Virus genome (UHGV): UHGV-0149956 | Direction: 5' to 3' (one strand) | Length of the DNA stretch: 64,000 bases | From: a virus | Shown here: positions 39,575 to 40,847 of the stretch, piece by piece | How the letters are laid out: every line of letters starts with the position of its first letter | How positions within the stretch are numbered: the first letter of the stretch is position 1 | The notes under the pieces: model-generated | Databases searched by the model: none | The model's input: only the letters and a program-made list of their open reading frames with translations | What the model was told of the DNA's origin: nothing | Made by a program: the position numbers and the translations under genes

Positions 39575-39876
39575 TGCAACGGAAACTAACTAAGCGTAAT
39601 AAAAATTGGTTGAGCAACATGCTGAAAAAAGCCAATCGCAACCATATGTACCTCAACGACTGGTTATCAATTAAAGGTAATCTCAGTGATGCAAAAATGA
39701 CTGACAGACATGTTGCGCGCTATGGTGTTTCACTTGTCTTAGAAAAGGCTGAATTAGTATTTTCGGAATATTATTCCATTCCGCAAATTAGCTCCAAAGG
39801 AAAAATATGTGGCTATGTGCTCAAACATAAAAGCAAGCTGGATGAGCTTTTAGTCATGGAAAAGGAGACGCAATGA
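39574..39876 (+). CDS. Hypothetical protein downstream of ban
   Basis: 100-aa ORF, start overlaps ban stop. Confidence 0.4.
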   Translation: MQRKLTKRNKNWLSNMLKKANRNHMYLNDWLSIKGNLSDAKMTDRHVARYGVSLVLEKAELVFSEYYSIPQISSKGKICGYVLKHKSKLDELLVMEKETQ

Positions 39877-40847
39877 ACATCCTGATCATTGGGCGAAAAT
39901 TTGAAGCTATCAGTGATGTGAAAACATATACGGAAATGTGGGCTTATAACCTGGCCTGCGCCTTTAGTGAGGCAGGGGTAACATTGCAATACCATCGTCC
40001 ATATTCCCCTGGCGTCGAAAGCCCGGAGGATTATGTTGAAGCTGTGTTGACTGCTGCGACCGCATGTTCTGCGAAGGCCATTTTGGCACCAGGATTGAGG
40101 TATTTTACTACGGTACCCAGGGAAATAGGCATGCAACTGTGTCGCCGATTCTCTGGATGGGTAGCCCAGGTATATGACGGTTCTATGCTGGATTCGGCAC
40201 CAGTCGATATTACTTTTACTGTCCGCGATGATACCTGGCGGTACCTGGATAATCCCGGCAGGTTAGAGCGTCATAATCGCTTTAACAAACATGTTGGATG
40301 GGCAGCGAATCAGGAACTGTTCCATCTGGAAACCAAGACAGACGATGTTCTGCGTATTTTTGTAGACCACGCTGCATTTGATGTTAGTGGGTTTGATCAC
40401 TCCTTAAGTATCCTTATGAACCTTCAGCGTCTGACCGTTCCGTATGAGGCCAGAACGTTGACCGATGACGGATTGGTTACCATTGATCCGGGGAATATTT
40501 CGGTAACTCCATACAGACGGACGCCGGTACCAGCAACCGAATTTGCAGCTGAATTGCGTAAGAGTGACGTTTTTATCGTTACGCATCCCGAAAGCCTTGG
40601 ATTAACTGTTCTTGAGGCGGCAATGTGTGGGGCGTTGATATTAACGCCGCCAGATTGCCTTCCGCCAGATCGCCTGGCTTTGGTGAACCATATGGTTATC
40701 AAGTCGCGGATTGATTGGGATGAGGTTATTGCTCGCGTTGATCGCGTGAAAAATGCTGAAAAGGTCCAGTGTCACACCTGGTCGGCAATCGCGGAAAAGA
40801 TGCTTGAGACGTTTATCACGCAGAAACCGTCGCGAGGTAACGGATAA
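39873..40847 (+). CDS. Glycosyltransferase-like protein (GT-B/GT4-like C-terminal motif)
   Basis: C-terminal segment VTHPESLGLTVLEAAMCGALILTPP resembles the GT4 E-x7-E sugar-donor motif. Confidence 0.4.
   Translation: MNILIIGRKFEAISDVKTYTEMWAYNLACAFSEAGVTLQYHRPYSPGVESPEDYVEAVLTAATACSAKAILAPGLRYFTTVPREIGMQLCRRFSGWVAQVYDGSMLDSAPVDITFTVRDDTWRYLDNPGRLERHNRFNKHVGWAANQELFHLETKTDDVLRIFVDHAAFDVSGFDHSLSILMNLQRLTVPYEARTLTDDGLVTIDPGNISVTPYRRTPVPATEFAAELRKSDVFIVTHPESLGLTVLEAAMCGALILTPPDCLPPDRLALVNHMVIKSRIDWDEVIARVDRVKNAEKVQCHTWSAIAEKMLETFITQKPSRGNG

Follow-up and report, generated by a model that had tools for sequence, protein, structure and literature searches.

dbn of a P1-like phage encodes a predicted GT4-type glycosyltransferase that may belong to a split four-enzyme glycan-building module

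The window, 64,000 nucleotides of the virus genome UHGV-0149956, contains at positions 39873–40847 (+ strand) an open reading frame of 324 amino acids, complete from ATG to stop. It lies after ban (38204–39574, + strand), the upstream gene of the operon, which encodes a DnaB-type replicative helicase (P1 annotation; Pfam DnaB_C E 1e-107, DnaB E 3e-35). The frame had been called from the letters alone in a preliminary description, and its boundaries and position are confirmed here.

The gene is dbn of phage P1, listed as gp078 in the record NC_005856 with the label 'function unknown, possible glycosyltransferase'. Counterparts occupy the same position, between ban and the baseplate gene 5, in P1 (dbn), P7 (glt) and RCS47 ('glycosyltransferase family 4 protein'). 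The DNA is about 97% identical to these three records, and 98.7% identical to P1 over 5.1 kb; the protein shares about 98% of its residues with P1 Dbn (YP_006544.1), P7 Glt and the RCS47 protein. High identity and the shared order ban–dbn–gene 5, the last being convergent, identify it as the P1 dbn ortholog. The preliminary description had doubted that the gene belongs to the canonical backbone, a doubt that is not supported. It had also said that its reading would fall if the gene were part of the conserved backbone and had another known function: the first half applies, and no other function is known. That dbn is a possible glycosyltransferase is itself already known, being long annotated in the P1 record. 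A literature search combining dbn and glycosyltransferase found nothing, and other papers only list the gene as nonessential or differentially expressed.

In the window, ban and dbn are separated by a 276-bp insertion, seen by alignment with P1, P7 and RCS47, that carries a basic 100-aa ORF (39574–39876, + strand; pI 9.8). Because the insertion replaces the eight N-terminal codons annotated in P1, this copy of dbn starts at what is an internal Met of the P1 gene (MNILIIG). The ORF overlaps both the stop of ban and the start of dbn by ATGA, and by these overlaps is predicted to be translationally coupled to the two genes. It is missing from P1 and from all 18 phage records compared, and present in 52 PLSDB plasmids and in 15 of the 87 P1-like loci. 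It corresponds to phrog_12809, of unknown function, and its relatives, 33–38% identical, occur in further records of Escherichia and Cronobacter phages. It shares the operon with dbn, but nothing ties it to the sugar-related genes described below. PADLOC defence models gave no match for either Dbn or this ORF.

We conclude that dbn is not a chance ORF, as it matches phrog_2518 (E 2e-233), is intact in 86 of 87 P1-like loci and has a pN/pS of 0.16 over 51 alleles. It was found in 471 PLSDB plasmids. In the laboratory it is dispensable, and so are three genes discussed further on, pmgO, pmgP and pmgQ: single deletions or CRISPRi knock-downs of the four produce no plaque phenotype (PMC9024508, PMC10695390), and the in-frame dbn deletion leaves both plaquing and antirestriction unaltered (PMC9024508). 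Together with a premature stop at codon 23 of the P7 copy and a Pfam score below threshold, the lack of a laboratory phenotype could suggest that the gene is a remnant, catalytically dead or decaying, that persists because it is linked to ban. The near-universal intactness and the pN/pS value argue against such decay, as do 14 columns that do not vary even among homologs of as little as 28% identity; we regard it as very improbable.

A glycosyltransferase-like product, as first proposed, is supported by both fold and motif. The AF2 model of Dbn (pLDDT 94.9) consists of two Rossmann-like domains, that is, a GT-B fold, and in Foldseek it matches GT4 enzymes, sucrose-phosphate synthase among them, with an E value of 4e-9. 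The motif HPESLGLTVLEAA contains a GT4-type E-x7-E pair, E240 and E248, that is invariant across 55 homologs; both glutamates are among the 14 invariant columns. It aligns with the EX7E segments of three proteins: MshA, WaaG and 8xsg_A, a chain of known structure named 'Putative glycosyltransferase'. When the Dbn and PmgQ profiles were compared with single WaaG or WaaO sequences, hhalign probabilities were 9–11%, and these alignments were used for motif correspondence only.

The C-terminal GT4-like signal noticed at the outset is real but weak at the level of sequence. Pfam Glycos_transf_1 covers residues 221–307 with 23.8 bits (E 3.7e-5), short of the gathering score of 26.4, while some family members pass it (P0321 at 28.4 bits; PF00534 is precomputed for P0001). 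The NCBI cluster is nonetheless named 'glycosyltransferase family 4 protein', and NCBIfam yields only a 15-bit match to a sucrose-phosphate synthase domain. Residues 1–200 have no Pfam match, the N-terminal domain fold being present nevertheless. Dbn has the features of a soluble cytoplasmic enzyme of GT4 type; neither it nor PmgO, PmgP or PmgQ contains a membrane segment (maximum Kyte-Doolittle 19-residue window 1.55).

Compared with retaining GT4 enzymes (sucrose-phosphate synthase 6kih, BshA, PimA/PimB', WbnH and WaaG/WaaB), Dbn is only 10–15% identical, shorter, acidic in its N-terminal half, and matched by Pfam below threshold in one half and not at all in the other. Classical GT4 enzymes carry an Arg/Lys pair where the C-terminal domain begins, which binds the donor diphosphate. 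In Dbn, D165, H166 and D175 are invariant in this region and R216 is nearly so; if these acidic and histidine residues take the place of that pair, the donor could be unusual. Some members of the family reach 520–555 aa through C-terminal extensions of about 200 aa. We considered whether these are PmgQ-like, and they are not: a methyltransferase makes up one of them, and the rest gave no significant match.

As dbn adjoins a replication gene, its product might be imagined to decorate the bases of phage DNA against restriction, and action on DNA was among the first suggestions. Known DNA-glycosylation pathways depend on an enzyme that hydroxylates or hydroxymethylates the base (PMC13326640). The annotation of the inspected P1 stretches lists no such gene, antirestriction activity is unchanged in the deletion mutant (PMC9024508), and the fold matches in this direction do not stand out from those to dozens of further GT-B enzymes. 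Moreover, the GT8 and WaaZ-like partners of Dbn described next are typical of glycan building. We consider DNA glycosylation very improbable.

These partners are encoded in the block pmgO–pmgP–(ppp)–pmgQ, which in P1 lies 6 kb from dbn behind a late promoter and is found in 50 of 51 long P1-like loci. The product of pmgO (46783–47445, + strand) is a predicted CMP-ulosonic-acid transferase, similar to WaaZ, Cst-II and Maf (MptE-like), and pmgP (47343–47969, + strand) is its paralog from the same superfamily. Their profile matches K-12 WaaZ with 43 bits, and their PDB matches are Cst-II, Cst-I, Lst and Maf. The last gene, pmgQ (48640–49341, + strand), encodes a 233-aa GT8-like glycosyltransferase of GT-A type with a DxD motif (D79-L80-D81) and the segment H208-G-K-P-R-P. 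Its model (pLDDT 94.7) retrieves GT8 enzymes including LgtC in Foldseek, its PDB profile matches are Gat1, GlyE and glycogenin, and an HMM match links it to WaaJ (E 1e-6).

Between pmgP and pmgQ, in the slot that relatives of dbn occupy in other phages, sits ppp (47951–48643, + strand), a lambda-type Ser/Thr phosphatase (Pfam Metallophos E 1e-15; NCBIfam protein-serine/threonine phosphatase). It is missing from the equivalent gene sets of loci L009, L010 and L161–L163, and is probably not part of the sugar module. The gene pap was considered too, since a lipid phosphatase of PAP2 type would have hinted at LPS; it is actually a HAD/PNKP-type phosphatase.

Relatives of dbn and of the pmg genes travel together in other phages. 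A Dbn relative and a PmgQ relative co-occur in all 17 non-P1 phage loci examined, the latter directly downstream in most; they are at most about 1 kb apart in all but one locus (L161, about 5 kb). These 17 loci sample few lineages of a family with 425 representatives. As P1-like contigs dominated the scan of viral contigs, it was rerun with a marine homolog placed first, so as to bring in further lineages. PmgO/PmgP relatives (WaaZ/sialyltransferase-like) often stand beside the Dbn relatives too, and the contiguous order pmgO–pmgP–dbn–pmgQ was found in two lambdoid phages, in one P2-like phage and in EP_H11, a cultured phage of E. coli. Two fusions, PmgO–Dbn (P0227) and PmgQ–PmgO (L103), were also found.

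The module lies inside or adjoins late or structural gene blocks, and sugar-type methyltransferases frequently accompany it or are fused to one of its members. Dbn relatives also occur in large phage contigs (127–281 kb) with terminase, RecA-like and helicase genes. Where identifiable, all hosts are Gram-negative or cyanobacterial. The Dbn family is small and mostly phage-borne. A scan of genome contigs gave three loci only, none of them informative. One metagenomic contig carries a 41% identical Dbn relative next to a PmgO-like gene within a kps capsule locus; this locus had no match in E. coli genomes. Conserved adjacency and fusions tie the Dbn family to PmgQ and PmgO/PmgP. The window itself holds all four genes, and dbn would be the one out of place among four transferase genes that unrelated phages keep side by side. 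We found no description of this link in the literature searched.

In P1 the putative module is split. One part, dbn, ends the C1-controlled ban operon, at whose start lies the bivalent C1 repressor operator Oban/Op72ab (35575–35602; P1 annotation). Its consensus matches at 35575 and 35586 have 0 and 2 mismatches, among a total of nine matches in the window against 0.32 expected. The other part belongs to the pmgL–pmgQ operon, with the late promoter LPpmgL (45686–45704, + strand; P1 annotation, exact match in the window) and, beside this promoter region, the C1 operator O26 (Op82; 45719–45735, − strand; P1 annotation, two mismatches). Since both operons carry C1 operators, steady expression in lysogens is not expected; from these operators and LPpmgL, we infer a lytic timing for the four genes. 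Because dbn and the pmg genes stand in different P1 operons, it is only from the other phages that their coordinated action in P1 is deduced.

This arrangement bears on the role initially proposed for the gene, namely lysogenic conversion or superinfection exclusion through altered host surface polysaccharide, which would make Dbn a stand-alone moron glycosyltransferase expressed from the prophage. The glycosyltransferase-like fold and the dispensability for plaque formation would agree with it, and so would the sigma-70 promoters P1dbn and P2dbn predicted inside ban in the P1 record, one of which we saw as a consensus match at 38937–38964; promoter-like matches around dbn are, however, not above chance (2 against 4.9 expected). 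Against it, the operon is under C1 control, dbn is a backbone gene of essentially all P1-like elements rather than a variable moron, and its relatives always come with further transferases, including in the large phage contigs, which show no temperate signs in the stretches fetched. Gtr-type serotype conversion relies on membrane-bound GtrA and GtrB, a multi-pass Gtr and expression in the lysogen. Dbn, PmgO, PmgP and PmgQ do not fit this description, having no membrane segment, and none of the neighbours of dbn and of the pmg block that were examined could be recognised as a flippase or a GtrA/GtrB-type partner. We therefore consider lysogenic conversion by Dbn alone improbable.

Instead, the co-travel of the four relatives elsewhere and the split seen in P1 make it most likely, at a probability of roughly 55%, that Dbn acts in lytic growth as one of the four enzymes of a glycan-building module whose genes are split. 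In the predicted pathway, Dbn would be a retaining transferase that takes a hexose-type sugar from a nucleotide-sugar donor, PmgQ would add a further hexose, and PmgO and PmgP would add a CMP-activated ulosonic acid. The one that E. coli K-12 is known to make is Kdo. The product would be a short glycan, built during lytic growth on an acceptor that can be reached from the cytoplasm.

The same enzymes could have a different purpose. They may modify the nascent lipid A-core at the inner membrane face, for example with extra Kdo and hexoses, and so mask or truncate the core glucose that serves as the P1 receptor; this would lower superinfection or the loss of progeny on debris. This reading has a parallel in the E. 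coli waa locus, where the same three families are found, WaaG/WaaB (GT4), WaaO/WaaJ (GT8) and WaaZ, all acting in the cytoplasm, sequentially, as soluble or peripheral enzymes. The profile matches of PmgO/PmgP to WaaZ and of PmgQ to WaaJ, the basic character that PmgO and PmgP share with WaaZ, the range of hosts, and the PmgO-like and Dbn-like pair in a capsule locus that builds a glycolipid-anchored polymer all point the same way. However, similarity to the core enzymes is low, and heptosyltransferase, kinase and ligase partners are lacking. Dbn and PmgQ are acidic, without the basic, membrane-associating halves of WaaG, WaaA, WaaO and WaaJ, although pI and length are a weak proxy for membrane association. 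Late lytic expression would leave little time to alter an existing outer membrane, the C1 operators make steady expression in lysogens unexpected, and the module is also found in large phage contigs and within structural gene blocks. We judge this remodelling of the core unlikely, yet the most serious of the alternatives.

For the glycan-building module, a soluble or protein acceptor, such as the virion proteins, is a tentative choice; the LPS core or another glycolipid is a possible but doubtful one, and other targets make up the rest. The balance tips slightly towards virion or other protein rather than the core, because all four enzymes lack a membrane segment, because the N-terminal half of Dbn has a pI of 5.8 (also the family median) against 9.2 for WaaG and 10.4 for WaaA, and because PmgQ, at 233 aa, is glycogenin-sized and shorter than WaaJ/WaaO (338–339 aa), whose C-terminal halves are basic. 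The position of the module in or near late and structural gene blocks and its frequent association with sugar-type methyltransferases favour the same choice. What counts against a protein acceptor is that LPS or LOS, rather than protein, is the target of most characterised PmgO/PmgP relatives (WaaZ, Cst-II, Lst).

Two known systems offer comparisons. In mycobacteriophages, glycans decorate capsid and tail-tube subunits (Freeman et al. 2023, as summarised in PMC12619734). Several phage-encoded soluble transferases near structural or late genes recall the Dbn module and its accompanying methyltransferases; hosts and donors differ, the likeness is one of gene context, and no P1 virion glycan is reported in the literature searched. 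The other comparison is with the region-2 transferases of group 2 (kps) capsule loci: in the one metagenomic contig mentioned above, the Dbn relative and the PmgO-like gene stand side by side between kpsMT and kpsCS/kpsD, an arrangement that suggests a hexose and ulosonic-acid transferase pair. Unlike such capsule loci, P1 has no export or linker genes.

It is possible, though we put it forward with reserve, that dbn, pmgO, pmgP and pmgQ represent a previously unrecognised glycosylation system of phages with Gram-negative hosts, which would place a glycan with Kdo or hexose on virion proteins or else rewrite the LPS core receptor. The genes form one conserved block in phages of lambdoid, P2-like and EP_H11-like type and in large marine phages. 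If this is true, several 'putative morphogenetic' genes of P1 would be glycan-building enzymes. The link would give a shared role, open to test, to four genes of a classic model phage that lack an assigned function; for each of them a clean deletion mutant is available (PMC9024508). P1-like phage-plasmids are common in clinical E. coli. Should their virions be glycosylated, it would bear on phage–host recognition and on the use of these phage-plasmids.

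The 324-aa ORF on the + strand of the window, with its ATG at 39873 and its stop at 40847, lies downstream of ban (38204..39574; Pfam DnaB_C, E 1e-107), the gene of a DnaB-type helicase, and is followed on the opposite strand by baseplate and tail genes. A 1.6-kb query around it finds 18 phage records with 96-98% identity, including P1, P7, RCS47 and SJ46, and longer stretches of the window are 98.7-99.5% identical to P1 (NC_005856): judged by its sequence, the window is that of a P1-like phage or phage-plasmid. The ORF is P1 dbn ('downstream of ban'), recorded there as 'function unknown, possible glycosyltransferase'; its P7 counterpart, glt, 'encodes putative glycosyltransferase', and the RCS47 label is 'glycosyltransferase family 4 protein'. 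As the gene keeps the same slot in P1, P7 and RCS47, between ban and gene 5, and 471 PLSDB plasmids contain its DNA, dbn is a canonical gene of the P1 backbone. The preliminary description, which knew of no such gene at this position, was wrong to treat it as unexpected; that it may encode a glycosyltransferase is already known.

In the window, ban and dbn are separated by a 276-bp insertion, found neither in P1 or P7 nor in any of the 18 phage records. It is carried by 52 of about 471 P1-like PLSDB plasmids and 15 of the 87 P1-like loci fetched. A 100-aa ORF there (39574..39876, + strand) encodes a basic protein (pI 9.8) that matches phrog_12809, of unknown function, and has relatives at 33-38% identity in Escherichia and Cronobacter phage records (19-1-2, TH18, Av-05, JK004). 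Overlapping the ban stop at one end and the dbn start at the other, this ORF is translationally coupled to both genes, and the insertion supplies an AAGGAG of its own ahead of the dbn ATG. In the P1 record dbn starts at position 72659, with an ATG that overlaps the ban stop, for a product of 332 aa. All family members in an alignment of 55 homologs start at MNILIIG, 8 codons downstream of that annotated start; this alignment and the insertion together indicate that the true start is the internal Met, giving 324 aa.

The leader of the ban operon holds three tRNA genes (36254..36407 and 37848..37923, + strand) for Asn-GTT, Thr-TGT and a CAT anticodon, the last called tRNA-Ile2 in the P1 record and tRNA-Met in that of RCS47. 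From 35.4 to 52.4 kb, megablast matches the window to P1 everywhere except at about 37013..37604; a TerB-domain ORF at 37139..37573 (144 aa) has the length of P7 terB (435 nt), not of P1 tciA (426 nt).

The dbn product, Dbn, is matched end to end by phrog_2518 (E 2e-233), and the gene is uninterrupted in 86 of the 87 P1-like loci. The sole exception is P7 (L002, NC_050152), where TGG has become TGA at glt codon 23 (columns 459-463 of alignment A1), which is why its record annotates a shorter Glt starting further downstream. Across 51 distinct alleles, 82 synonymous and 43 nonsynonymous segregating changes give a pN/pS of 0.16, and 14 columns are invariant in homologs down to 28% identity. On the basis of the phrog match, intactness, pN/pS and invariant columns, dbn is a real, functional gene, and it is unlikely to be a dead one.

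By sequence, the glycosyltransferase signal in Dbn is weak. Pfam Glycos_transf_1 matches residues 221-307 only, at E 3.7e-5 and 23.8 bits under a gathering score of 26.4, so the curated profile does not place Dbn in GT4; GT4 enzymes are marginal matches to the same C-terminal segment in NCBIfam and PDB sequence searches. This segment contains an EX7E motif, F234-x-V-T-H-P-E240-S-L-G-L-T-V-L-E248, both glutamates of which are invariant, and aligns with the counterpart motif in MshA, 8xsg_A and the LPS core enzyme WaaG. The AlphaFold model, built with 55 homologs, has a mean pLDDT of 94.9, and in Foldseek it matches sucrose-phosphate synthase (E 4e-9) along with numerous other GT4 enzymes; the predicted fold is firmly of the GT4 type. 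The sub-threshold Pfam match, the invariant motif and the fold thus bear out the GT4-like C-terminus first noticed from the sequence. D165-H166 and D175 are invariant in Dbn, where classical GT4 enzymes have basic residues; its donor may therefore be unusual. As seen in a profile search of 1.84 billion representatives, the family is small and distinct (425 clusters at E <= 1e-3, 193 at E <= 1e-30). Its named members carry only 'glycosyltransferase' or 'hypothetical', and we found no characterised one in the searchable literature.

In a lambdoid phage contig, a Dbn relative (56% identity) has two genes of unknown function upstream of it and one downstream; a P2-like contig has the same arrangement around a relative of 47% identity, and in large phage contigs (127-281 kb) Dbn relatives cluster with other sugar enzymes and methyltransferases. 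Searched by tblastn against the window, these neighbours have homologs in three + strand genes 6-9 kb downstream of dbn, annotated in P1 as pmgO (46783..47445), pmgP (47343..47969) and pmgQ (48640..49341). The pmgO and pmgP frames overlap by about 100 nt, as called in the window and the P1 record. BLAST and iterated HMMs, applied to 17 phage loci outside the P1 group, found a PmgQ relative alongside the Dbn relative in every one, and the PmgQ-like gene is mostly directly downstream with overlapping stop and start; the two are at most about 1 kb apart in 16 loci and 5 kb apart in a Citrobacter plasmid (L161).

A contiguous pmgO-pmgP-dbn-pmgQ block occurs in two lambdoid loci (L009, L162), the P2-like one (L010) and the cultured E. 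coli phage EP_H11 (L163, OP688485), where its annotated genes are all labelled 'hypothetical protein'. An un-annotated pmgP relative (46% identity) is present at 4400..5008 of EP_H11, between the pmgO-like and dbn-like genes. Fusions join PmgO to Dbn (P0227, 522 aa; L156 4304..5872), PmgQ to PmgO (L103 10978..12243) and Dbn to a methyltransferase (P0280). The PmgO-Dbn gene of L156, a siphovirus-like contig, is flanked by head and head-tail connector genes. A bacterial group 2 capsule locus (L008 2801..15063, metagenomic contig, Logan ERR13998826) has a Dbn-like gene (41% identity) adjoining a PmgO-like gene in region 2, between kpsMT and the kpsCS-like and kpsD-like genes; no PmgQ relative was found in it. 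Region 2 also has two additional GT-B genes.

P1-like elements have the set split: pmgO, pmgP, ppp and pmgQ stay together in 50 of 51 long loci. The lambda-type Ser/Thr phosphatase gene ppp (47951..48643, + strand) is between pmgP and pmgQ, the slot of the dbn relative in lambdoid and P2-like phages and EP_H11. From this gene order, dbn looks to have been moved out of that slot, or exchanged, in the P1 lineage. The link between dbn and the pmg genes is, as far as we found, undescribed in the searchable literature, and it is directly testable.

PmgQ has no Pfam match. Its family profile matches, in the PDB, Skp1 alpha-galactosyltransferase (6mw5, E 6e-8), GlyE and glycogenin, all GT8, and its model (pLDDT 94.7) has matches to these enzymes as well as to LgtC and WbbM. 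It has an invariant DxD (D79-L80-D81) and keeps H208-G-K-P-R-P, aligned with the C-terminal G-P-T-K-P-W of WaaO. Profile, model and motifs place the predicted protein in GT8. PmgO and PmgP are paralogous, and their MptE-like matches fall below threshold. Their joint profile matches almost the whole of E. coli K-12 WaaZ, the third-Kdo transferase (43 bits), and the sialyltransferases Cst-II, Cst-I and Lst and the flagellin glycosyltransferase Maf in the PDB (E 1e-4 to 2e-3); the two therefore belong to the superfamily of CMP-activated-ulosonic-acid transferases. To our knowledge, CMP-Kdo is the only such donor in E. coli K-12.

The ban-dbn operon begins with a bivalent operator of the C1 repressor (35575/35586; consensus match and P1 annotation), and the late promoter LPpmgL of the pmgL-pmgQ operon is at 45686, identical in sequence to the P1 annotation, with a C1 operator at 45719. 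Chance would give 0.32 matches to the operator consensus in the window, which has 9. Other matches are at 15436, 17098, 32053, 49343, 49392 and 51484, and include a pair directly after pmgQ that corresponds to OpmgRa/b of P1. Given the operators and the late promoter, both parts should be shut off in lysogens and expressed during lytic growth; lysogenic conversion by a stand-alone Dbn, one form of the host-surface modification proposed initially, is unlikely. Gonzales et al. 2022 (PMC9024508) deleted dbn, pmgO, pmgP, pmgQ and ppp in frame; plaquing and antirestriction activity were unaffected in 24 of 29 P1 mutants, and the five genes named essential include none of these. CRISPRi knock-down of the same five gave efficiencies of plating of 0.7-1.4 (PMC10695390).

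None of Dbn, PmgO, PmgP and PmgQ has a hydrophobic segment. Dbn (pI 5.6) and PmgQ (pI 6.1) are acidic; PmgO and PmgP resemble WaaZ in being basic. In its N-terminal half, Dbn has a pI of 5.8, in contrast to 9.2 in WaaG and 10.4 in WaaA, and WaaO and WaaJ, which have basic C-terminal halves, are about 100 aa longer than PmgQ.

That these proteins remodel the LPS core is the main rival reading, and it ranks only just behind the soluble or protein acceptor preferred below. The Dbn, PmgQ and PmgO/P families mirror WaaG/WaaB, WaaO/WaaJ and WaaZ, most characterised PmgO/P relatives act on LPS or LOS, and the LPS core is the P1 receptor. The acidic, soluble character of Dbn and PmgQ favours instead a soluble or protein acceptor, for example virion proteins, to which we give a slight preference, with a probability of roughly one in three. 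Such an acceptor is also favoured by the closeness of PmgQ to Gat1, glycogenin and GlyE, GT8 enzymes that lengthen protein-linked glycans, and by the sugar-type methyltransferases that often accompany the module; glycosylation of DNA by Dbn, also raised at first, is unlikely. The soluble or protein acceptor is favoured too by the module's presence in late or structural blocks, next to terminase or portal genes or between head and connector genes, and by the mycobacteriophages, a precedent in the summary of PMC12619734.

With its predicted fold and motif, Dbn would be a nucleotide-sugar-dependent GT4-type transferase, an activity that we infer. Adjacency and the fusions in other phages suggest joint action: Dbn, PmgQ and PmgO/P most likely form a small cytoplasmic assembly line that would build a short glycan in the course of lytic growth.
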